DNA of 64,000 bases, from positions 314,888 through 378,887 of the forward strand of contig CAZIAP010000001.1 of NCBI GenBank assembly GCA_964537315.1. Reading direction: 5' to 3'. Shown in pieces: positions 13,299 to 63,765 of this stretch (the stretch's first letter is position 1; the number at the start of each line of letters is the position of its first letter). This DNA is from an uncultured Gammaproteobacteria bacterium. Lineage in GTDB: Bacteria; Patescibacteriota; Microgenomatia; Levybacterales; GWA1-39-11. The notes beneath the pieces were generated by a model, which made no database searches, was not told where the DNA came from, and saw only the letters and a program-made list of their open reading frames with translations. The translations under genes were made by a program, and so were the position numbers.

Positions 13299-14455
13299 TG
13301 TTTAACTTTAACAGTTTTATATAAGGTCTGAATTGAATAAAACATAAGTATGTATAAGATGGGAATCAAAATCACAAAATATCGAGCTGCAACTTGTCCA
13401 AAACTGAAGAAAAGAATATAAATTATTGCCCAAAACAAAAGTGGCTCAAGTTGTCTATTATGAGACACTTTTCTAAAGAAGTGTAAAAGTACCAGTACTA
13501 CCATATTTACAGTAAGTATAGGCCAAGTAATTAACCATTGCGAATCAGATAAAATAGGTTTATTGCCCCACCACACATGCCAATGATTTAACAAAAGTAA
13601 TGGCCAAATGGTAAAAGGTTTTATTAGCTGACTTTTATGGTATTCCAAAATATATTTTTGCACACCAATAAATTCTCTTAAATCGTATCCATTAAATAAT
13701 AATTGAACATAGTTAAGAAGTAAAAATAAAACACTTATTGGTAATGTAAACGTTAAATACAGAGCCTTTTTATAATCTTTATTCCAAATTAACACACCAT
13801 ACCATGCTGCAACGATTGTTGCTCCAGTTGCATAAAATTTTGTTGATATAAACATACCAAGAAAGAGAGAGGCGAGTGAGAAAAATATTACGACTTGTTT
13901 TGTAGTGACTTTTTTTTCTAAACCTTTTATAAAAAAGAAAAAAGCCAGGAGTAAAAAAAACAACTGCATAATATCAAGCAATGGTACGTGTATTAGCTGA
14001 TTTCTAAAAATTGGCTCTAGGCTGAGTAGAAAGACTGGGATAATCGCAAATAGCCTTGACGCAAATACTTTCATTCCAATCATATACATCAAAATTAGTG
14101 AACCTACTGCAGAGATAAGAATAAACAAGTTTTCGTTTCCGGTTAATAGTGCAGAATATCCAATTAAATATCTTCCGAAAGGTGGAGTGTCTGCAGCTAT
14201 TATAATTGGTAAAACTCCCTCTTTAATATATGCTGCTCCGGCATATGAGTTAACTGTTACGTCTGGAATCCATTCTGTTGGATTTTTCACTACATATTGT
14301 GATGATCCATAGTCGTCTTTTAATAGTGGGTAACGATCCCAAAAATCGAATGATAAGTAGTTATTGCTATTCTCTAATAAAGTAAGAAATACTGTTGCAG
14401 CTATTAAACATACAATAGCAAAAAAAATAATTAACGAAAAAGATTTTCCTTTCAT
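13295..14455 (-). CDS. polytopic membrane protein, GT-C-like putative glycosyltransferase
   Basis: 386 aa, about 10 TM helices, N-terminal periplasmic loop. ATGA overlap with galE. Confidence 0.45.
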   Translation of the reverse strand: MKGKSFSLIIFFAIVCLIAATVFLTLLENSNNYLSFDFWDRYPLLKDDYGSSQYVVKNPTEWIPDVTVNSYAGAAYIKEGVLPIIIAADTPPFGRYLIGYSALLTGNENLFILISAVGSLILMYMIGMKVFASRLFAIIPVFLLSLEPIFRNQLIHVPLLDIMQLFFLLLAFFFFIKGLEKKVTTKQVVIFFSLASLFLGMFISTKFYATGATIVAAWYGVLIWNKDYKKALYLTFTLPISVLFLLLNYVQLLFNGYDLREFIGVQKYILEYHKSQLIKPFTIWPLLLLNHWHVWWGNKPILSDSQWLITWPILTVNMVVLVLLHFFRKVSHNRQLEPLLFWAIIYILFFSFGQVAARYFVILIPILYILMFYSIQTLYKTVKVKQ

Positions 14456-15423
14456 GCCTGTTTCTTATGCCAATTCCAGGCAGATCTGACAATCGTTTCC
14501 AAATCTGAGTGCTTTGGATCAAATCCCAGAACTGTTTTTGCCTTGGTGTTGTCTGCATAAATCATAGGCGGGTCTCCCGGTCTTTTTGGCTTTTCATCTA
14601 CCATGAAATCCACTCCACTTACTTTTTTGACCATATCAATGACCTCTCTGTTTGAATGTCCTTGTCCAGTTCCAAGATTGAATGAGTCGCTTTTGTTCTC
14701 CTTCATTACATAATCTAATGCCTGAATATGCCCTGTCGCCAAGTCTTCAATATGAATATAATCTCTAATACATGTCCCGTCTTCTGTCGGGTAATCATTT
14801 CCAAAAAGTGAGAAACTTTCTCTTTTTCCGAGAGCTGCTTCTATTGCTATTGGGATAATATGTGTTTCCGGATCATGCTGTTCACCCAGATCACCTTCTA
14901 AACCCGCCCCTGCCGCATTAAAATATCGAAGATTTATATGTTTGATGCCATGAATCTTGTCATACCAATCCAGGATAGTCTCAAACATCAGCTTGGATTC
15001 ACCATATGTGCTCTCCGGGTGTTTTGGTGACTCTTCAGTAACAGGTAACTGGTCAGGTGTTCCGAAAATTGCGCAAGTTGAAGAAAAGATAATGTATTTT
15101 ATCCCCTCTTTTTTCATTAGCTCCAATAGATTTAGCCCACCAGTAATATTGTTGTAAAAATACTTATATGGATCCTGCATTGACTCGCCTGCCTGAGCGT
15201 ATGCCGCAAAATGAATAACTGCGTCAAAATTTTTACCTGAGAGGGATTCAAAAAGAAAATCCTTATCTACTAAATCTCCCTGAATCAACTCGCACGACAC
15301 AGACTCTCTATGACCATAAACCAAATTATCGTAGATAGTTACTTCGTGTCCTTGTTCAAGCAACCTCTTAACCGTAGTACTACCAATATACCCCGCCCCA
15401 CCAGTGACCAAAATCTTACTCAT
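14452..15423 (-). CDS. galE: UDP-glucose 4-epimerase
   Basis: MSKILVTGGAGYIGS, YFNAAGAG and catalytic YGESK. Length and overall pattern match GalE. Confidence 0.9.
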   Translation of the reverse strand: MSKILVTGGAGYIGSTTVKRLLEQGHEVTIYDNLVYGHRESVSCELIQGDLVDKDFLFESLSGKNFDAVIHFAAYAQAGESMQDPYKYFYNNITGGLNLLELMKKEGIKYIIFSSTCAIFGTPDQLPVTEESPKHPESTYGESKLMFETILDWYDKIHGIKHINLRYFNAAGAGLEGDLGEQHDPETHIIPIAIEAALGKRESFSLFGNDYPTEDGTCIRDYIHIEDLATGHIQALDYVMKENKSDSFNLGTGQGHSNREVIDMVKKVSGVDFMVDEKPKRPGDPPMIYADNTKAKTVLGFDPKHSDLETIVRSAWNWHKKQA

Positions 15424-15518: not shown

Positions 15519-15594
15519 TGTAACCAGAATATTAAGTTTATCCATAATAATATTTTACCAAAATGTACTGCTAAATATTAGATATTCATATATC

Positions 15595-17124
15595 TTATCT
15601 AAAATGTAGGTTACATATAAGATTTGGATCAGATTCAACCAATATTTCTTCAGGATCAAGAATATATTTTTCAACCAATACACCCTTTCCAAATGTTGTT
15701 ACTTTAATAGGATCCTTTTCTAAACCAACCCGTATTTTTTTCCAAAATACAGGATCAGTCTTAGCATATTCTTCAGGTGTTGGGTAGTAAATTAAATACG
15801 TAATTGGTAACTTTTTGCATAAATCTGCTCTAGAGATATAATCATCTTGCAGGTAATTCATCGCATATTTAACAGAATACCCAAATTCATCCGGAGAGTA
15901 TACATAGTAACCAATTTCTGCTTCTTCAGAATCTTGATAAATATATTCGGCAATGTTTTTATTTAAAATCCAAGATGAGCTGTCATAGTTTGATTCACTA
16001 CTCAGCCAACCTAATGCAACATTTTTGCTCTGAATAAATAATAAAGTAAAAACAATGAAATAAACTGCAAAAAAAACTTGTTTGGGAATTATTCGATAAA
16101 GTGATACAAAAACAATAATAACTAAAGGCAGAAATGCCCAGTGATAATAATCCCAAACTAATCCTTTGAACAATATGCTTAAAATCCAGAATCCAGTATA
16201 GAATCCAAAGAATATAAAATAGAAGTTCCTACTTTTAAGTCGTGTGTCAGTAATCGTTTTGAATATAATAAATACATTTAAACCTAGAAAAGCTAAACTA
16301 TTTAGAATACCTGATCCTATTAACTGAAGTCTGCTAACAAAGCCCTCCATTCTATTTAAGATTATTTCGACAATACTTAATTTCGTCCTGTCAGTAGGAG
16401 GATTTGTTAAAAAACCAATTATTGAATTAATGTGTAAGAAGTTATTTCTTATTTCAAAAACTATATAGTTTGATAAAGGTAATATCATAAGTAAGTAAAA
16501 TAAAATATATTTAAACTGCTGTCTTCTATACAGGATTATGGATGTATATACTATTGACATAAATATTGTCAGCATAGCAAAAGCAGGTTGTAGATGAAAA
16601 AGTACGCCTAAAATTAATATAAGCGCAATTAGATATTTTTTATCTGTAGACTCAGTAATTTTAAACAGCAAATACCAAATAATTGGCGATAAAATTAATG
16701 ACCCAAAACTTTGCGTAAATCCTTTCGCGGTAGGTATGACAGCAACAGAATACATGACAGCAGTAAGAATACCCGTATCGTTACCGAACAGCTTTCTTGA
16801 TACCCAATATACTGATATTATAGACAAACATACTGCCAGTAACCAAAATACCCCTATAAAAATAGGGTTTCCTTTTCCAATAACGAAAAACGGGGTTGCA
16901 GCATAATACCAAATAGGACCAAAGTATACTCCCGATATTCCTCCTGCTCTAGGTCCTATTAAGTCTGGACTACGTGTGTTTACCATATCTTCTATTAATA
17001 ACAAGTCCCTTGCTGTATCAGTGTGAAAAAGAACATCACCATGTATAAGGTGCAAACTTGAGTAATATAAACTACTTATTAACAGTGCGATTGATAAAAT
17101 GTATAACGCTATTCTTTTTTTCAT
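15595..17124 (-). CDS. polytopic membrane protein, GT-C-like (HTDTARD motif family)
   Basis: 509 aa with many TM helices. N-terminal loop FHTDTARDLLLIEDM is related to the loops of 37934..39637 and 39624..41294. Confidence 0.5.
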   Translation of the reverse strand: MKKRIALYILSIALLISSLYYSSLHLIHGDVLFHTDTARDLLLIEDMVNTRSPDLIGPRAGGISGVYFGPIWYYAATPFFVIGKGNPIFIGVFWLLAVCLSIISVYWVSRKLFGNDTGILTAVMYSVAVIPTAKGFTQSFGSLILSPIIWYLLFKITESTDKKYLIALILILGVLFHLQPAFAMLTIFMSIVYTSIILYRRQQFKYILFYLLMILPLSNYIVFEIRNNFLHINSIIGFLTNPPTDRTKLSIVEIILNRMEGFVSRLQLIGSGILNSLAFLGLNVFIIFKTITDTRLKSRNFYFIFFGFYTGFWILSILFKGLVWDYYHWAFLPLVIIVFVSLYRIIPKQVFFAVYFIVFTLLFIQSKNVALGWLSSESNYDSSSWILNKNIAEYIYQDSEEAEIGYYVYSPDEFGYSVKYAMNYLQDDYISRADLCKKLPITYLIYYPTPEEYAKTDPVFWKKIRVGLEKDPIKVTTFGKGVLVEKYILDPEEILVESDPNLICNLHFR

Positions 17125-58224: not shown

Positions 58225-58563
58225 TCATAGGTTTTTATACTGTAAATTTTCTAATGTTTTCTTTAATGCTTGTTTGATATGATCACGACCGAAGCCACTT
58301 TTCAAAAATTTTTCTCTAGCTTTTGCATCACGCTGGTCAGTAAATGACTCGTAGAAAATTAACTTTAACGGTCTGCGGTGCTTTGTAGCACTGACATACC
58401 CCTTTTCATGTTCAATTATTCTTTGATTTAAATTAGTGGTATAGCCTGTATATAACTTGTGATCACGCAGACTAAAGAGAATATATACGTAAAAATTAGA
58501 AGATAAAACGTCTGACGTTTTATTCATTAATAATATAAAATGGGAGAAGAGTAATCGAGTCAA
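58225..58563 (-). CDS. GIY-YIG nuclease family protein
   Basis: YVYILFSLRDHKLYTGYTTNLNQRIIEH contains GIY-YIG motif variants (VYIL...YTGYT). The ~110-aa size is typical of standalone GIY-YIG proteins. Confidence 0.8.
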   Translation of the reverse strand: MTRLLFSHFILLMNKTSDVLSSNFYVYILFSLRDHKLYTGYTTNLNQRIIEHEKGYVSATKHRRPLKLIFYESFTDQRDAKAREKFLKSGFGRDHIKQALKKTLENLQYKNL

Positions 58564-58616
58564 ACTCGATTCACCTTCATCAAACTCTACTCCGGGCGGA
58601 GCCGAGTTTGACTCGG

Positions 58617-58689
58617 TGACCCCACGGGAATTCGAATCCCGGTTTCTGGGATGAGAACCCAGTGTCCTAGGCCTCTAGACGATGGGGCC
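58617..58689 (-). tRNA. tRNA-Glu (anticodon CUC), 73 nt, CCA not encoded
   Basis: Manual fold: acceptor GGCCCCA/TGGGGTC, D-arm GTCT-AGAGGCCTA-GGAC, anticodon arm CTGGG-TTCTCAT-CCCAG (U33, CUC, A37), variable loop AAAC, T-arm CGGGA-TTCGAAT-TCCCG, discriminator A. Confidence 0.85.
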
Positions 58690-58761
58690 GTCAAAAAACT
58701 CTAATATACAAAAGGATTAGAACTTAGAGGTACGAGAATTATATCAAATTCAAATCTTAAA

Positions 58762-58796
58762 TCAAAAAAAGATCTGCGCCGGAGGAGCTGCAGATC
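58762..58796 (-). terminator. rho-independent terminator (GATCTGCAGCTCCTCCGGCGCAGATC hairpin followed by a T7 run on the minus strand)
   Basis: Perfect 7-bp GC-rich stem GATCTGC/GCAGATC, followed on the minus strand by TTTTTTT. Confidence 0.65.
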
Positions 58797-59046
58797 CCGA
58801 CCTGCCTTACGACAGATTTGAATAACAGTTGTTCACGCGATATCTCGCGTGCCTCCGACGCAGGTTCTACCTGGATTAGGACTTATCAGACTTTCGGATT
58901 ACCTTGCGCGTGCAAGGCGCTATGATTTCCCTTCTGCGGTTAAAATACCTCCGTCGTGGACCCAAGTAGAGTATTCGAGGTGTCCTTCGAAAGACCGCAA
59001 CAGGGGAACCGTACCGAAAAGCCACTAGCTATTCCTTCCATTAGAC
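58797..59046 (-). ncRNA. candidate structured non-coding RNA of unknown class (~250-285 nt, GC-rich, between two terminators)
   Basis: No ORF of 60 aa or more on either strand. GC content far above background. A terminator follows the preceding gene at 59047..59088 and a strong terminator sits at 58762..58796. No tmRNA, RNase P or SRP consensus could be recognised by eye. Confidence 0.3.
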
Positions 59047-59088
59047 GAAAAAAGTAGGGGTAAAGCGGTGTACACCGCACTATACCCT
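59047..59088 (-). terminator. terminator-like hairpin (GGGTA..GCGGTGTACACCGC..TACCC) followed by a T6 run on the minus strand, immediately after the stop of 59080..59412
   Basis: 14-bp perfect palindrome GCGGTGTACACCGC at 59065..59078. A minus-strand T-run occupies 59047..59052. Confidence 0.45.
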
Positions 59089-59412
59089 TCTGTTTTGCCG
59101 CAAAGCTCGCTCCTTACTAAAGTCAATAATCTGACTTTGATTACTACGATCACTCGTTTGTGTGTTGCTCAATGAATGTTGAACATACCACGCGCCTGAC
59201 AGAGCGCCAAGTGAAAAGAAAGCTATGCTAACTCCCGGATTATATGCTTTGAACTTCTTTTTGCTAGATCTTTTAGGTAATCTCCTAAAGATTCCCAATC
59301 TCCAACATGTGACCATAGCCAAAAGACATACTACTGCTATAAGCTCAAGAGAGAAATAAAGAGGGAGAGCTATCGTCAAACAAACAGCAAAAACTACTAG
59401 AAACTTCAGCAT
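59080..59412 (-). CDS. small membrane protein (two TM helices), unknown function
   Basis: MLKFLVVFAVCLTIALPLYFSLELIAVVCLLAMVTCW...VSIAFFSLGALSGAWYV. Confidence 0.45.
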   Translation of the reverse strand: MLKFLVVFAVCLTIALPLYFSLELIAVVCLLAMVTCWRLGIFRRLPKRSSKKKFKAYNPGVSIAFFSLGALSGAWYVQHSLSNTQTSDRSNQSQIIDFSKERALRQNRRV

Positions 59413-60010
59413 CGTTTCTTCCCTTCCAGATAGATGTTAAAGATCTGTTGTGCACTTCACAACAAATTACAGTTCACACTCGCTTCATATGCAAGATGTG
59501 AATTGGTTGCCATAAGTATAGTTTGTTAAAAAGTGAGAGTCAATAATAATTAAATTGAGAATAAATGAGGATATTTGTATAACCGGGCGGGGTGGACCCG
59601 CCCGGTGTAAGTGGTCAGAGTCGTCAGATGACGAAGTGTTCCGCATAGATCGCGGAGATTCGTACAAATGACAACCTGTCACTCATGCATCTGCTTTCCA
59701 AGCAGAAATTGCGAAATACCAGGCTAGGCGTTGAGAAGCATACGGAGCTGGTCTCGATCACACGTTAGACAACGACATTTTCGGCAAAAAATGCCGAAAG
59801 CAATCATGTCGTTCAAAACAGAGCTATCGATCTCCAACCCGAACGGACTCTCACGAGTAAGAGAGTCCAGAGTGGTTCGCAATATGCGCGGATTGCGTTC
59901 CCACTTCTTCTCAAGCTTAGCGAAAACATCCTGCAAATCGATCTCACTGTTAATGTGAGACTTCTTCTCGCTGCTTCGTACAACGACAGAGACCTGTGCC
60001 AGCGTCTGAA

Positions 60011-60241
60011 TCATTTTTTCCCCTCCCCCGAGGTTTCAAAAGAACCAAGGCCGATAATGATTTCCTGCATGTATCGAAGGAGTTTTTCAGGATCGTCTTC
60101 GATCCTTACGTTCTCATTGCCATCTTCGGCAAAAGAGATCGTCAACTGATCAGGCTTTACCAATTCAGGCAGCTTCTCATCAGTTGAATTGCCATTTCCT
60201 AAGAAATGGTCGTTCACCGCGCGTTTCCTTTCTGGCTTCAC
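60011..60241 (-). CDS. hypothetical small acidic protein (76 aa), low confidence; lies in a GC-shifted ORF-poor region
   Basis: Protein-like composition (VKPDQLTISFAEDGNENVRIEDDPEKLLRYMQEIIIGLG) but overlapped by ORFs on the opposite strand. Confidence 0.25.
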   Translation of the reverse strand: MKPERKRAVNDHFLGNGNSTDEKLPELVKPDQLTISFAEDGNENVRIEDDPEKLLRYMQEIIIGLGSFETSGEGKK

Positions 60242-60470
60242 TATTAAATATGGATGCCAGAAAGAACCCTTTGTTTCATTACGTCACCCTTCCAGGTAAA
60301 GATGTCAGTAGAGTAAGCGAATGACACTTATTCTACTGACAACGCATAACGGATTGTAAAGACATGCGCACAACTGAACAACAACAGTTGGCACGTTTCA
60401 ACGCTATCGGCTCACGGCATATCCTTTCTCTAAGATCAATGATCTCTGCCTCATCCTGTGATTTATATCA

Positions 60471-60563
60471 CAGACAAAGACCGCCGGAAGAAAAGAGTAA
60501 CTCTCTCCTCTTTCGGCAGTCTTTATAAAGCAGTTTATTGGATTTCGCAATTTTAATGTACTA
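60471..60563. repeat. direct repeat copy A (~95 nt; the homologous copy B is at 61041..61148)
   Basis: The copies share caaagaccgc..gaaaaga..ctcctcttt..cgcag..ttttaatgtacta at about 75% identity. Confidence 0.5.
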
Positions 60564-61040
60564 GATCTCACATTTTTTTACTTTTACAAAAAGTATATTG
60601 GTGTGGGAGCGCATAAGTCGCGCCCCCACTAAAGAAAACAGGAAGTACCTTCATTTGACGATACATTGACCGCCAAGATAATACCTCCTGTCAAGCTGGA
60701 ACCTAATCGGAATGTCCTTTCAATGCATATAGCATTCTGCGTTTTCGATCAATATCACGGTCGCGTGATCTGTGAGGAGCACCATGCTTTCTCTTTAATT
60801 GGTATCGCTTCGCTCGCGACCCCTTCTCTTTTAGTGTCTGAACAGCTTGCATTCGTAACACTTCGAAAAGTGGCTCCATCTCGACGGGCCTCACACCGGA
60901 AATGGAGGTGCCAACAATTGAGAAAGCATAAGATGCTTGCATCGTACTAATCCTCCTACGTTTCGTCGAACTTATTAGGATGTATCCTCAAAAGACTTAG
61001 TTATCCTTTCTACTAGGCCTTTATACATAATCGGGACTTC

Positions 61041-61148
61041 CGACAAACAAAGACCGCGAAAAGAAAAGACAAAAACCTCCTCTTTACGCAGCCCTTGCAA
61101 AAAAACTCCGATTTGAACGGAGTAAATTCCAGTTTTTTAATGTACTAC
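61041..61148. repeat. direct repeat copy B
   Basis: See copy A. Contains the internal hairpin CTCCGatttgaaCGGAG. Confidence 0.5.
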
Positions 61149-61154
61149 TTTTAA

Positions 61155-61220
61155 AAATAAAAAAAGCAACCGTTATTAAGATACAAATTGTCTAAGATCT
61201 TAATATGGTTGCTTTTTAGT
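61155..61220. terminator. bidirectional rho-independent terminator downstream of lon (11-bp stem AAAAAGCAACC/GGTTGCTTTTT with nested TTAAGAT/ATCTTAA)
   Basis: The stem is flanked by A-runs and T-runs on both strands, giving U-tracts in either orientation. Confidence 0.55.
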
Positions 61221-61368
61221 ATACGCTTAAAATAATATCCTGTCAATATACTATAAGGATAATTATTATATGAGTGCCTCTTACAAATTTTAATAAATTT
61301 CTGTAAGTTTAACCGAGATCAAGAAGAAAATTTCTTACGAAGCTGATAAAAACTTAATTTCTTATAGG

Positions 61369-63765
61369 TTATTCTGCAGGAGTAGGCTGCATGGAGACAA
61401 AATTCTGTTTTGGTTGTTTTTCGCCTTTAATCTCTTTAAAGCCCGGAAGAGGTTTAGTAAGTGCGATTTTTAATACATCATCCATGTGGCTTACGAATAC
61501 AAACCTAAGATCATTTAATACTTCTTTTGGCACATCTTCCAGATCTTTTCTGTTTTCTTTAGGCATAATAATAGTCTTTAATCCTGCACGGTGCGCAGCA
61601 ATTACTTTTTCTTTAACTCCACCAATTTCAAGAACTCTTCCTCGAAGTGTTACTTCACCGGTCATACCGACTAAGTGGTTAGTAGGAATTTTTGTCAGTG
61701 CTGACACAATAGCTGTAGTAATAGCAGTGCCTGCTGATGGTCCGTCTTTTGGTACAGCACCTTCAGGTACGTGAATATGTACATCTAGTTTGTCATAGAA
61801 ATCTTCTGAGATTCCAAGCTTCTTTGCTCTTGATCTAATATATGACATAGCAGCCTGTGCCGACTCTTTCATTACATCTCCGAGTTTTCCCGTTAATGTA
61901 AGTCTACCCTTTCCAGGCATGAGAGCGATTTCTATGAATAAGATATCTCCTCCAACTTCTGTGTATGCAAGTCCTGTTGCAATTCCGACTTCATCTTTTT
62001 TCTCAGCGATTGTTGATGCAAATTTTGCAGGTCCGAGATACTTGGTTACAGTTCTTTCAGTTACCTCAACTTTTTTCTTCTTTCCTTCAGCTACTCCTTT
62101 TGCTACTTTTCTCATTACTGCAGCTATCTCTCTCTCAAGACTCCTTACTCCTGCTTCACGAGTATAACGTCGGATGATAAACCGTAACGCACCATCTGTA
62201 ATTGATACATTCTCTTTCTTCAAACCATGTGCTTCGCGCTGTTTTTTGATTAGAAAGTCTTTTGCGATATGGAACTTCTCGTCTTCTGTGTAACCTGCAA
62301 ACCTAATTATTTCCAATCTGTCACGAAGTGCAGGTGGGATAGTATCAAGCATGTTTGCAGTTGTGATAAACATTACATCCGAGAGATCAAAATCTACGTC
62401 AAGATAATGATCGCCAAACTTGCTGTTCTGCTCTGGATCAAGTGCTTCAAGTAATGCTGCTGTTGGATCTCCGCGGAAATCTACCCCTACTTTATCAATC
62501 TCATCAAGCATGAAGACTGGGTTTTTGGTACCTGCGTCCTTAATTCCTTGTATCATACGACCTGGCAGAGCACCTACATAGGTTCGTCTATGTCCTCTTA
62601 TCTCTGCCTCATCACGAACTCCTCCAAGTGATAGTTTCACAAATTTTCTGTTAAGTGATTTGGCGATTGATTTACAAATAGATGTTTTACCAACTCCTGG
62701 TGGACCTACAAAACATATAATTGGTCCTTTCATTTTTCCTGACAATTTGTGTACTGCCAAGTACTCGATAATTCTTTCTTTTACTTTTTCAAGTCCATAG
62801 TGATCTTCATCAAGTACAGCAGCTGCTTTTTTCATATCAAGTGAAGTCTTTGATTTTTTATTCCATGGTAGGGATACGAGCCACTCTAAATAATTGCGGA
62901 TGTATCCTGCTTCTGGATTATATGGGGTTGTTTGCTGAAGTTTGCGTAACTCTTTGCGGGCTTTGTCCTCAACATCTTTTGGCATTCCTGCCTTACGTAT
63001 TTTATCGAGAAGCTCACGTACCTCTCCTCCCTCATCTGACTCACCGAGCTCTTTTTCTATTGTCTTTAGACGCTCTCTTAGAATTGCTTCTTTTGCATTT
63101 TTCTCAAATTGCTCTTGGGTTTTTGAAGCAATCTTTCGTTCAAGTTCGAGAACTTTTACTTCACGGGAAAGAAACTCTGATACTTTTTCAAGACGTTTTT
63201 TAACATCTATGGTTTCTAAAATCTCCTGTCGTTCGCTACCTTTTATATCAAGTGTAGATGCGATCTGATCTGCCAGTTCACCTGGTGTAATTTCAGACAT
63301 TATATTCATAAACACGAGAAAGTCTGCCTGCTTTCCATAATTAAGAGCTTTTTTGAATTCACTGATTAAGTGGTTGGTGAGTGCTTTAATTTCGGCGTTA
63401 CCAGTATCTCCCTCGTCAATTTCTTCAATTTCTGCGAGTAAGTAGTTACCCTTGTCTTCGTATGAAATTATTTTAGATCGATTAAGACCTCGGACAAGTG
63501 CATTTACTTCTCCGTCAGAACGAATCATACGTTCTATATGAGATACTGTTCCCATAGAATAAAGGTCTTCAGGGCTTGGATCATTTTGTCGTGGATTTTT
63601 CTGTAGAACAAAACAAACAACACGCTCTCCTGCAAATGCTGACTCAAGAGCTGCCAAACTTTTTGGTCTTCCGAAAGTCAAAATACTTTCAGTATGGGGA
63701 AATACAATACCGTCTCTAATTGGTATTACTGGAATCAATTTTCTGTTTGATGAAGTTAGATTCAT
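61369..63765 (-). CDS. lon: ATP-dependent Lon protease (LonA)
   Basis: N-terminal LON domain, Walker A GPPGVGKTS, Walker B MLDEIDK, and protease domain with PKDGPSAGTAITTAIVSALT (catalytic Ser) and K in GGVKEKV. Confidence 0.95.
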   Translation of the reverse strand: MNLTSSNRKLIPVIPIRDGIVFPHTESILTFGRPKSLAALESAFAGERVVCFVLQKNPRQNDPSPEDLYSMGTVSHIERMIRSDGEVNALVRGLNRSKIISYEDKGNYLLAEIEEIDEGDTGNAEIKALTNHLISEFKKALNYGKQADFLVFMNIMSEITPGELADQIASTLDIKGSERQEILETIDVKKRLEKVSEFLSREVKVLELERKIASKTQEQFEKNAKEAILRERLKTIEKELGESDEGGEVRELLDKIRKAGMPKDVEDKARKELRKLQQTTPYNPEAGYIRNYLEWLVSLPWNKKSKTSLDMKKAAAVLDEDHYGLEKVKERIIEYLAVHKLSGKMKGPIICFVGPPGVGKTSICKSIAKSLNRKFVKLSLGGVRDEAEIRGHRRTYVGALPGRMIQGIKDAGTKNPVFMLDEIDKVGVDFRGDPTAALLEALDPEQNSKFGDHYLDVDFDLSDVMFITTANMLDTIPPALRDRLEIIRFAGYTEDEKFHIAKDFLIKKQREAHGLKKENVSITDGALRFIIRRYTREAGVRSLEREIAAVMRKVAKGVAEGKKKKVEVTERTVTKYLGPAKFASTIAEKKDEVGIATGLAYTEVGGDILFIEIALMPGKGRLTLTGKLGDVMKESAQAAMSYIRSRAKKLGISEDFYDKLDVHIHVPEGAVPKDGPSAGTAITTAIVSALTKIPTNHLVGMTGEVTLRGRVLEIGGVKEKVIAAHRAGLKTIIMPKENRKDLEDVPKEVLNDLRFVFVSHMDDVLKIALTKPLPGFKEIKGEKQPKQNFVSMQPTPAE

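Follow-up and report, generated by a model that had tools for sequence, protein, structure and literature searches.

Several described systems resemble the locus that we consider here. Intrinsic terminators combine a G+C-rich helix with a U-run at the end of a transcription unit, and ordinary ones drift freely in sequence. The attC sites of integrons act as DNA, as folded single-strand recombination sites. Additionally, there are small unannotated bacterial proteins of ~50 aa or fewer, arginine-rich RNA-binding motifs such as that at the N-terminus of phage lambda N, and the mRNAs of type I toxin-antitoxin systems (hok/sok), in which a long-range fold-back conceals the ribosome-binding site. 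Our subject is a stretch of ~280 nt (59045-58764) on the minus strand of a Microgenomates genome (candidate phyla radiation, CPR), and by "the window" we mean the whole 64-kb stretch of DNA that was analysed. Is this an RNA gene, a protein-coding gene, or maybe something in between? We favor, with a probability of about 0.55, the reading that it makes up the distal half of a small, accessory cassette with two genes and not a free-standing non-coding RNA.

The placement and composition given in the original prediction are accurate. The stretch lies downstream of the ORF of a 110-aa membrane-type protein and upstream of the promoter of tRNA-Glu(CTC) (Table 1), and its G+C content is 50%, compared with 30-37% for the genome and 0.24-0.37 across most of the neighbourhood. 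This high G+C content is not special to the stretch, because the whole gap from lon to tRNA-Glu has a G+C content of 0.41-0.46 in all relatives, ORFs included.

Table 1. Features of the cassette and its surroundings, in window coordinates.
Feature	Coordinates	Strand	Basis
Promoter-like P1, TTGACT-17-TATACT; likely start of the cassette transcript	59515..59543	-	Consensus scan, 10/12
ORF of 110-aa membrane-type protein; orphan, first cassette gene	59080..59412	-	ORF list; gene call in Logan contigs (runs SRR7082966-82)
Intercistronic hairpin, GGGUA/UACCC around GCGGU-GUAC-ACCGC, then CUAC + U6	59048..59087	-	Predicted fold, -14.4 kcal/mol
Shine-Dalgarno-like GGAAGGA, 7 nt ahead of GTG	59033..59039	-	Read from sequence
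Candidate unannotated small ORF, GTG start, UAA stop, 49 aa	58876..59025	-	ORF list; L005 homologue
E1, three-way junction; 12-bp closing helix enclosing two hairpins	58774..58863	-	Minimum-free-energy fold; covariation
E1 closing helix, CUGCGUCGGAGG / CCUCCGGCGCAG	58863-58852 with 58785-58774	-	
E1 hairpin a	58851-58834	-	
E1 hairpin b	58828-58788	-	
Alternative local hairpin, GAUCUGC (58796-58790) / GCAGAUC (58777-58771) + U7 (58770-58764)	58764..58796	-	Predicted, -14.3 kcal/mol
Promoter-like P2 of tRNA-Glu, TTGATT-16-TG-TATAAT	58738..58765	-	Consensus scan, 10/12; extended -10
tRNA-Glu(CTC), conserved neighbour of E1	58615..58689	-	ARAGORN; Rfam tRNA, 55.8 bits

Homologues were sought in 80 species-level loci collected through Lon synteny, with twelve contig look-ups. 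Lon of the window is 92% identical to that of the metagenome-assembled genome L005 and 56-80% identical to that of the other 79 loci, which are mostly labelled Levy-, Gottesman-, Roizman- or Daviesbacteria. By nhmmer and a covariance model (R1), the full stretch was found in L005 alone (14768-15130; nhmmer E 2e-8). Together, the membrane-protein ORF, the small ORF and the folded element E1 make up an accessory cassette of ~880 bp; the corresponding segment (59574-58693 of the window) is absent from L105 (Lon 91% identical), where the upstream hairpin directly adjoins the tRNA promoter. The surroundings of P1 are homologous to that same tRNA-Glu promoter region of L105. A metagenome scan for the pattern CTGCGTNGGAGG N55-85 CCTCCNNCGCAG returned 17 hits, all on contigs of 47-73% G+C and none with an nhmmer match, and are probably due to chance. 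Viral contigs contained no instance of this pattern, blastn found nothing in phage and plasmid collections, a profile of the membrane protein matched no viral contig, and no cassette ORF matched PHROGs.

Comparison with catalogued RNAs was equally unproductive. At the gathering threshold, Rfam 15 reports only tRNA in the 64-kb window; at E<=10, there is nothing inside the stretch when 1.4 kb is searched, and there are zero hits when the 351-nt stretch or its L005 copy is searched. The families covered include RNase P, SRP, tmRNA, 6S, riboswitches, OLE/GOLLD/ROOL/HEARO and parts of group I/II introns, so the Rfam comparison that the original prediction had proposed produced no family, and its exclusion of tmRNA, RNase P and SRP RNA was correct. 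In the loci of relatives, only tRNAs reach gathering score, and in L111 no match at E<=5 falls on its E1. The weak Rfam matches nearby (RsaE, ylbH, snoRNAs and miRNA hairpins) are due to chance. A literature search on structured RNAs in CPR bacteria turned up nothing relevant.

Might the stretch instead be a divergent housekeeping RNA (RNase P RNA, SRP RNA, tmRNA or 6S RNA) overlooked by standard models in CPR genomes? Its size, G+C content and adjacency to a tRNA would fit, and GGAAGGAAUAGC, which the original prediction had likened to SRP domain IV, does bear a faint resemblance to that domain; however, GGAAGGA serves the small ORF as its ribosome-binding site, the Rfam searches came back empty for either copy even with lax filters, and ARAGORN finds no tmRNA in the window. 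Furthermore, the stretch is missing from the syntenic site of L105 and from six other lineages within the clade, and its two copies are ~60% identical between genomes whose tRNA-Glu is 92% identical, which is not the behaviour of an essential RNA. We consider the housekeeping explanation close to refuted.

What the stretch does contain, as judged from covariation, is a single strongly supported RNA structure, the Y-shaped three-way junction E1, which begins twelve bases past the stop codon of the small ORF. Nine of the 12 base pairs of its closing helix are G-C, a GGAGG/CCUCC pairing forms part of this helix, and AUC and U7 follow. E1 is the minimum-free-energy fold in both the window and L005, with identical topology, and all of its pairs (34/34) are kept between the two, eight of them with compensatory changes on both sides. 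In a comparison of six lineages, pairing of the closing helix reaches 94% and 8/12 pairs are compensatory, a result that 0/500 shuffles reach and that slid registers approach to at most 54%, with the limitation that the arms were anchored by hand and the interiors removed for this count, which favors pairing somewhat. The arms in relatives were located by an anchored regular expression and a pairing search, as the variable interiors are not alignable by MAFFT. In L102, L110, L111 and L113/114/115, a closing helix of the form GCG-NN-GRGRG / CYCYC-NN-CGC surrounds unrelated interiors; among lineages the ends read GCGYYGRG and CYCRRCGC, the centre spans 32-77 nt and the total length is 52-101 nt. 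Each locus carries one copy, and in six related lineages that copy stands just before the tRNA-Glu promoter, preceded in each by a different last ORF. Helices of the closing type are rare, with five in 64 kb. The transcribed strand is indicated by the G-U pairs and by the asymmetry of folding z-scores for the 150-nt segment 58775-58924 (-4.8 for minus vs -1.6 for plus), both of which point to minus.

The 5' part of the stretch presents a different picture. The 336 nt of the minus strand fold with a z of -4.7 (0/100 shuffles fold as well), and the 5' 187 nt alone with a z of -1.87 (10/200 shuffles fold as well; -1.97 for the L005 copy), compared with the -4.8 of 58775-58924, which locates the folding signal in the 3' third. 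The minimum-free-energy topology of the 5' part differs between the window and L005, and the covariance model built on the window fold aligned only the 3' domain of L005. The covariation that the original prediction had asked of homologous loci is evident in the 3' domain only, and its description of a structured RNA holds, as a conserved, strand-specific structure of no catalogued family, for the last ~100 nt only.

The 5' part is also not free of ORFs, as had been claimed. Most of it is spanned by the same-strand small ORF, which the gene callers behind the Logan contigs did not call. Its ribosome-binding site, start and stop lie at homologous alignment positions in the two sequences available, the window and L005; the L005 ORF (14829..14987) encodes 52 aa with 15 K+R, starts with ATG, ends with UAG and has GAAGGGA 6 nt ahead of the ATG. 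The sequence UCCAGRUAGA directly follows the stop codon in both copies. The type of ribosome-binding site is common to the neighbours, with GGAAGGG before the ORFs at 59412 and at 60217. The predicted 49-aa peptide is strongly basic (15 Lys+Arg vs 2 Asp+Glu, ~30% Arg/Lys) with a cluster RRRYFNRRRE, and searches of Pfam and of 1.84 billion representative proteins brought up no relative of it. Codon phase is the same in 72% of the columns aligned between the window and L005 (99 of 138), compared with 33% by chance, and mismatches at codon positions 1/2/3 amount to 10/32, 10/34 and 20/33 (31/29/61%; Fisher p 0.005). This periodicity has a p-value of 0.005-0.3 depending on gap penalties, its direction being the same in 6/6 alignments tried. 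Seventeen of 38 homologous codons encode the same residue, and the conserved P-R-x-L and Y-x-N-R-R-x-x-I contain synonymous differences (CGA/CGC, CUC/CUU, UAU/UAC, AAC/AAU and CGC/CGA).

How convincing is this coding signal? At the protein level, similarity is modest: BLASTP of the two peptides gives an E of 0.03 over 10 residues, and the global protein score has a z of 1.9. Their identity of 28% is the same as that of the neighbouring, clearly homologous membrane protein, a protein with about three hydrophobic segments whose L005 counterpart is 28% identical (pairwise E 9e-9; global score z 9 vs shuffles), for which a search against Pfam and PHROGs gave no match and one against 5.8 billion proteins gave only itself. 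An antisense frame that shares wobble positions scores equally (18/37 identical vs 17/38 for sense), its conservation arising from those shared positions; we prefer the sense ORF only on account of its ribosome-binding site, conserved ends and orientation. The antisense ORF (58849..59028, plus strand, 59 aa) is less likely to be a real gene, as it has no ribosome-binding site and its ends are non-homologous in L005. A pseudogene remnant of a neighbouring ORF was also considered and rejected, as tblastx of the 5' part against the gaps of all relatives gave no match. The coding signal, drawn from two copies only, is thus weak.

It is at this point that a wholly non-coding stretch must be weighed, either as a structured small RNA or as an extended, structured 3' UTR that belongs to the membrane-protein mRNA, in which the 5' domain would be a closed multi-branch fold, E1 the 3' domain and the 49-codon ORF a chance frame. 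The well-defined full-length fold of -109.6 kcal/mol (z -4.4, 0/200 shuffles as good) would be in keeping with this idea, as would a two-tier long hairpin found at corresponding positions of the two copies but built from entirely different stems (UUGCGGU-CUUUCG/CGGAGG-ACCGCAG in the window and GUCUUC-GUUCCG/CGGAAU-GAAGAC in L005). The two copies of the 5' part agree in 63% of aligned columns (alignment z 3.8), compared with 45% at fourfold-degenerate lon sites; frames of 46-59 codons are open in 3/6 frames of the stretch, so an ORF by itself means little; and the protein-level similarity is, as noted, weak. However, the 5' part folds only slightly better than shuffled sequence, its topology is unlike between the copies and the covariance model placed none of it, and the three-base periodicity, codon phase and conserved ribosome-binding site, start and stop are unexpected for a non-coding RNA. 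A promoter for an independent transcript did not appear in the consensus scan either. We think a wholly non-coding stretch unlikely, at something like one chance in a few, and conclude from the comparison of the two sequences that the 5' ~170 nt are more likely to be a short protein-coding gene than a structured RNA. The predicted folds still leave room for a structural role of this part; in the window, for example, the ribosome-binding site of the small ORF is predicted to pair with the ORF's own 3' end.

The transcription of the stretch bears on the same issue. The consensus scan found no sigma-70-like site on the minus strand between 59412 and 58765, and because there is no promoter-like site between the first hairpin and the stretch, the independent transcript between two terminators that had been proposed is unsupported. 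No sign of an independent RNA gene was found, and co-transcription with the membrane-protein ORF from the promoter-like site at 59543-59515 would be the simpler reading. The upstream terminator of the original prediction stands in part: the hairpin after the stop codon of the 110-aa ORF (stem 59087-59058) is there, with a U6 (59053-59048) that begins 4 nt past the stem, but the consensus terminator scan did not flag it, and L005 keeps the hairpin without its U-run. At most, it is a weak terminator.

The downstream terminator, which had been called strong, fares similarly. The local hairpin is GAUCUGC(A)GC-UCCUCCG-GC-GCAGAUC, with 7+2 bp and U7 directly 3' of it, and both of its arms are invariant in L005; the scan did not flag it, its loop of >8 nt exceeding what the scanner handles. 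It uses the 3' arm of E1, so that only one of the two can form at a time, and the best fold with the local hairpin (-37.0 kcal/mol) is 13.6 kcal/mol less stable than that with E1 (-50.6 kcal/mol) in the window and 17.8 kcal/mol less stable in L005. In the window, the stem and U-run of an intrinsic terminator are present in either state, as the closing helix with AUC+U7 or as the local hairpin with U7. Among relatives, the U-run after E1 is usable in the window and L111, weak in L005 (AUCACAUUUUU) and distant or absent in L110, L102 and L113, which is why termination is perhaps not the conserved role of E1.

Two mutually exclusive folds naturally raise the thought of a switch, in which a ligand, a protein (for example, the arginine-rich peptide encoded just upstream) or temperature would set the balance between E1 and the local terminator and thereby control read-through into tRNA-Glu. 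The shared segments GAUCUGCAG and CGCAGAUC are invariant between the window and L005, and the GGAGG/CCUCC pairing lies within the closing helix. The energy differences, however, strongly favor the junction in both genomes; a stem stands beside the U-run in both states, so that the outcome need not differ; tRNA-Glu has its own conserved promoter downstream; the E1 of L110, L111 and L102 has no equivalent alternative hairpin; and the unconserved interior leaves no unpaired pocket that is itself conserved. We hold such a switch, peptide trigger included, to be very improbable. A riboswitch or attenuator was rejected on the same two observations, the unconserved interior among lineages and the separate tRNA promoter.

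Returning to the two-gene cassette, we hypothesize the following course of events. Transcription would start at P1 and run through the 110-aa ORF, and the transcript would pass the leaky intercistronic hairpin into the second ORF, which would be translated from GGAAGGA and GTG to yield the 49-residue basic peptide. Past the stop codon, the RNA folds into E1, with the closing helix followed by AUC and U7, and E1 would end the transcript and shield its 3' end. The terminator proper may be the closing helix with its U-run, or a transient GAUCUGC/GCAGAUC hairpin that forms before refolding. P2, whose segment TATAATTCT is kept in L005, L105 and L110, overlaps the end of the U7 run; in other words, the tRNA-Glu promoter starts inside the U-run, and termination at E1 could insulate it. 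Covariation shows the structure of E1; its role as a terminator, translation of the second ORF and what either protein does are inferred.

The wider gap between lon and tRNA-Glu prompts a further question; could E1 act as DNA, as a folded single-strand recombination site comparable to attC, or as the target of a GIY-YIG nuclease, marking the ends of cassettes? Such a role would explain the gene turnover in the gap, where gene content differs in every lineage, even between L111 and L113 (lon 97.6% identical). The inverted ends of E1 are conserved and its centre is variable, it always lies 3' of the last orphan ORF, and GIY-YIG ORFs adjoin tRNA-Glu in the window, L005, L006 and L110. Against this idea, E1 occurs once per locus and not once per cassette, the other small ORFs of the region end with different hairpins, the attC core sites RYYYAAC/GTTRRRY are absent from E1, and the immediate surroundings of E1 in the window yielded no integrase, the serine recombinase of L005 lying beyond the tRNA. 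Starting 3 bases upstream of the tRNA, L111 and L113 share 904 nt at 100% identity, which places their breakpoint at the tRNA 5' end and not at the E1 arms, and E1 is oriented in the sense direction where a transcription unit ends, with U-runs after it in several lineages. A DNA-level role for E1 seems to us decidedly improbable. A second conserved hairpin, E2, lies farther upstream of E1, and a broader proposal, which we also consider improbable, is that E1 and E2 together form the cis-acting boundary of an undescribed cassette-exchange system in a CPR genus, one that the GIY-YIG nucleases encoded on either side of tRNA-Glu might drive. In such a system, folded sites whose ends are conserved and whose centres vary would allow small orphan genes in the lon-tRNA-Glu gap to be exchanged.

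If the two-gene cassette is real, GTG-initiated micro-genes can lie hidden in the G+C-rich, "ORF-free" gaps of A+T-rich genomes, and such gaps merit a test of codon periodicity before they are labelled as RNA. The poorly annotated CPR genomes would gain an orphan arginine-rich peptide and a structured RNA motif of narrow distribution, a terminator-proximal Y-shaped junction whose closing helix covaries. The finding itself is fairly ordinary, being confined to a few close relatives and having no bearing on a long-standing question. The wider gap may outweigh the stretch in interest; it is a place of frequent gene turnover, a hot spot with conserved RNA hairpins and GIY-YIG nuclease genes as its frame, and it could be a tractable example of how small accessory genes are gained and lost in reduced genomes.

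How, then, does the locus compare with the systems named at the outset? The hok/sok mRNAs share with it a small hydrophobic membrane protein in a strain-variable cassette and, in the predicted fold of the window, a ribosome-binding site that pairs with a distant 3' segment. In contrast to type I toxins, the membrane protein is larger, at 110 aa with about three hydrophobic segments; the consensus scan found no antisense promoter; and the hidden ribosome-binding site is that of the second ORF, in a fold that is weakly supported. The attC sites of integrons resemble E1 in their conserved inverted ends, variable centre, length of 52-101 nt, strand-specific fold and position 3' of small orphan ORFs in a region of rapid turnover, but E1 is without the R''/R' core motifs, is present in one copy per locus and not per cassette, has no integron integrase beside it, and the one mapped breakpoint is at the tRNA. 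Intrinsic terminators are like E1 in their G+C-rich helix and U-run (AUC+U7 in the window) and in their location at the end of a transcription unit, just before the next promoter, and a simple local hairpin with U7 is also available in the window; the stable fold of E1 is, however, a 90-nt three-way junction and not a single hairpin, its closing helix covaries across lineages, and several relatives have no adjacent U-run. The peptide recalls the small arginine-rich peptides exemplified by the RNA-binding N-terminal motif of lambda N in being ~30% Arg/Lys, in its RRRYFNRRRE cluster and in being encoded directly 5' of a structured RNA and terminator, but its sequence is related neither to N nor to any other family, and the suggestion that it might bind RNA and act in antitermination is pure speculation. 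Finally, the small ORF is much like those of the small unannotated bacterial proteins, short, GTG-initiated, missed by gene callers and equipped with a ribosome-binding site of its own.

We conclude that the 3' third of the stretch, the ~270-nt minus-strand region first singled out as a candidate non-coding RNA, is a genuine, conserved and uncatalogued RNA structure of ~90 nt, terminator-proximal in position, which we term E1. In the window and in L005, the related locus from the one MAG whose Lon is 92% identical, these thirds adopt the same Y-shaped three-way junction, built from a closing helix (window, CUGCGUCGGAGG/CCUCCGGCGCAG; L005, CUGCGUUGGAGGA/UCCUCCAACGCAG), on which a short hairpin stacks (CACGCGA-GAUA-UCGCGUG versus CAUGGU-AAUC-ACUAUG), and a longer interrupted hairpin. 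All 34 pairs are kept in both sequences, and in 8 of them a model-based alignment has both sides changed. Folding of 58775-58924 is specific to one strand as well: the minus strand gives z -4.8 and the plus strand -1.6.

The same architecture is present in every other clade member in which the region was compared (L102, L110, L111 and L113-L115), where GCG-NN-GRGRG / CYCYC-NN-CGC encloses one to three hairpins of unrelated sequence, beginning 5-25 nt past the last ORF. Across six distinct closing-helix sequences, counted with arms anchored by hand and interiors removed, 94% of cells are paired and 8 of 12 pairs show compensatory change; none of 500 shuffles reached these values, and slid registers gave at most 54%. 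Such helices are rare, numbering five across the 64-kb window, and an anchored search yielded a single E1 at each clade locus and nothing beyond chance-like matches in other Microgenomates loci. E1 is confined to a single clade, whose Microgenomates lineages are closely related.

What might E1 do? The original prediction placed a strong terminator here, and its hairpin, GAUCUGC(A)GC...GC-GCAGAUC followed by U7, does exist; it is formed from E1's 3' arm together with the base of E1's second hairpin, and the best fold containing it is less stable than E1 by 13.6 kcal/mol in the window and 17.8 in L005. In either fold a stem adjoins the U-run, within which the tRNA-Glu promoter starts, and E1 would end the transcript and protect its 3' end just upstream of that promoter. 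This idea is weakened by L110, L102 and L113, which have no U-run adjacent to E1, and therefore the conserved role of E1 may be other than termination. E1 lies 6-85 nt upstream of the tRNA-Glu promoter elements in L111 and L113-L115; in L110 a GIY-YIG ORF stands between those elements and the tRNA, and the L102 contig stops short of the tRNA.

tmRNA, RNase P and SRP RNA were correctly excluded at the outset, since Rfam gave no match to the stretch, either at gathering threshold or at E<=10 (1.4-kb query, stretch alone and L005 homologue), and ARAGORN found no tmRNA. The homologue search took in 80 Lon neighbourhoods (one genome per species), further contigs with Lon proteins 81-92% identical, metagenome and viral pattern scans, and phage and plasmid collections; in all of these the only homologue of the whole stretch is L005 14768-15130 (nhmmer E 2e-8). 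Metagenome pattern matches, which fell in G+C-rich contigs, are most likely chance.

The 5' two thirds tell a different story. The region had been described as ORF-free, a claim contradicted by a same-strand 49-aa ORF with a GTG start, matched in L005 by a 52-aa ORF with an ATG start. In nucleotide alignments of the two, built without protein reference, three ORF landmarks can be read: the starts coincide (AUAGCUA-GUG in the window, AUAACUC-AUG in L005); GGAAGGA or GAAGGGA stands 6-7 nt ahead, a type of site shared by neighbouring ORFs; and both stops directly abut a conserved UCCAGRUAGA. Codon phase is the same in 99 of 138 aligned columns (one third expected by chance), and in-phase mismatches rise from 10/32 and 10/34 at the first two codon positions to 20/33 at the third (Fisher p 0.005). 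Over six alignments (five pairwise gap schemes and MAFFT), mismatches peak at position 3 in all six, with p up to 0.3, and five of them place more columns in phase than the third expected by chance. Synonymous differences occur at the conserved residues P-R-x-L and Y-x-N-R-R-x-x-I, and each peptide has 15 Lys+Arg. Identity of the peptides is ~28%, the level of the adjacent membrane protein, which is clearly homologous between the two loci (E 9e-9, z 9); the small-peptide pair itself gives a BLASTP E of 0.03, and searches of Pfam and of 1.84 billion proteins gave no relative of the 49-aa peptide. An antisense frame with shared wobble positions scores as well as the sense frame; it has no ribosome-binding site and its ends are non-homologous.

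From this comparison of two sequences, we put the probability that the 5' two thirds are an overlooked micro-gene at a little over one half. That the whole stretch is instead a non-coding structured RNA or 3' UTR we put at about one quarter: the 5' 187 nt alone are barely above shuffled stability (z -1.87, 10 of 200 shuffles equally good; z -1.97 for the L005 copy), their minimum-free-energy topologies differ between window and L005, and, of L005, a covariance model of the window fold could align the 3' domain only. The first observation is partly confirmed and its reading as a structured RNA partly supported: with covariation, the check that had been proposed, the structure holds for the 3' element; for the remainder a micro-gene is the likelier reading.

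Features of the locus, in window coordinates unless a related locus is named
Feature	Position	Strand	Remark
lon	63765..61369	minus	
Lon-to-P1 interval		minus	2 kb, tiny ORFs only
E2 hairpin copies	61043-61101, 60470-60529	minus	L005 12677-12738, 14399-14452; also L105, L102, L111, L113
79-aa ORF	60703-60942	minus	very basic
68/76-aa ORF	60011-60241	minus	
96-aa ORF	59724-60014	minus	
P1	59543-59515	minus	promoter-like site
110-aa ORF	59412..59080	minus	membrane-type
The stretch	58797-59088	minus	between 110-aa ORF and P2
49-aa ORF	59025..58876	minus	GTG start
E1	58774-58863	minus	
P2	58765-58738	minus	second promoter-like site
tRNA-Glu(CTC)	58689..58615	minus	
Small GIY-YIG nuclease ORF	58225-58563	minus	next after tRNA-Glu; L005 15310-15564; L006, L007; L110 ~13500-13760, 13941-14243

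The surroundings are those of an accessory, fast-evolving cassette, which strongly opposes a housekeeping RNA. In L105 (Lon 91% identical), the tRNA promoter comes straight after the homologous upstream region of several hairpins, and window 59574-58693 is missing, and with it P1, the ORFs for the membrane protein and the small peptide, and E1; in six other clade members E1 is present and the last ORFs are different and unrelated. The lon-to-tRNA-Glu gap (window 58690-61368; also L005, L102, L105, L110, L111, L113-L115) spans 1.6-3.1 kb at 0.41-0.46 G+C, versus ~0.36 for the loci, the stretch itself having 50% against 0.24-0.37 around it, and its set of small orphan ORFs differs in every lineage. 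L111 and L113, with lon 97.6% identical, are 100% identical throughout the 904 nt that start 3 bases ahead of the tRNA, and the ~830 nt upstream of the tRNA are wholly unrelated. From such comparisons the gap looks like a recombination hot spot. Neither Pfam nor PHROG gives a convincing match to its putative 96-, 68/76- and 79-aa ORFs (a single Pfam hit falls below its cut-off), and differences between corresponding small ORFs of the close pair L113/L114 are mostly non-synonymous (3 non-synonymous and 2 synonymous; 5 and 0).

Other structured segments lie upstream. E2, a second conserved element, is a ~55-nt, ~25-bp near-perfect hairpin without U-run or Rfam match (outer stem ACAAAGACUGCNG/CNGCGGUCUUUGU, inner stem AAGAGGAG/CUCUUUUCUU). 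It occurs in one or two copies per locus, 125-300 nt past lon and upstream of small ORFs, with compensatory changes between lineages (GACUG/CGGUC, AAUCGC/GCGAUU, CAGUCUG/CAGACUG); its role may be that of an RNase III site or leader hairpin. Five hairpins in a row follow the 96-aa ORF (59525-59760, minus strand; z -7.3 for 59525-59674), the last being CCGGGCGGG-UCCA-CCCCGCCCGG; L105 retains the run at ~75% identity, and its final hairpin there (CCGAGCGGGGA-UUUAC-UUCCCCGCUCGG) carries compensatory changes. Window 60050-60424 (minus strand; z -3.4 to -4.9) and L105 3879-4358, in which no gene is called, are 69% identical over ~470 nt including the long leader of the 68/76-aa ORF, and may represent another structured leader or non-coding RNA.

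As judged from its Lon, which is 56-80% identical to those of the other 79 loci (labelled mostly Levy-, Gottesman-, Roizman- and Daviesbacteria), the genome belongs to the Microgenomates group of the candidate phyla radiation (CPR). Elsewhere in the window, 688-45831 holds a very long co-oriented block of ~40 successive, almost gapless minus-strand ORFs.

The tRNA-Glu trailer (58475-58624, minus strand) is very strongly structured (z -6.8): CCGAGUCAAACUCGG can pair locally or with CGAGUUUGACUCG 32 nt downstream, and beyond this, immediately ahead of the GIY-YIG ORF, stands a terminator-like hairpin, AAAACGUC-A-GACGUUUU. A weak Rfam match to RsaE in this trailer (22 bits against a gathering score of 79) is chance. 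Directly past tRNA-Glu, L005 carries the gene for a large serine recombinase of 495 aa (15585-17072, locus minus strand), a position consistent with tRNA-Glu as a mobile-DNA integration site in the clade. GIY-YIG ORFs adjoin tRNA-Glu, on its downstream side in the window and on its upstream side in L005, L006 and L110, and in L005 and L110 the ORF end falls in the first tRNA bases (…GP(I/V)V). Upstream of the tRNA, L005-L007 carry a partial copy of its 5' end that is split by a hairpin-rich insert of ~55 nt, and in L005 and L006 a GIY-YIG ORF sits between copy and tRNA; the arrangement suggests a selfish gene of homing-endonuclease type that travels with tRNA-Glu.
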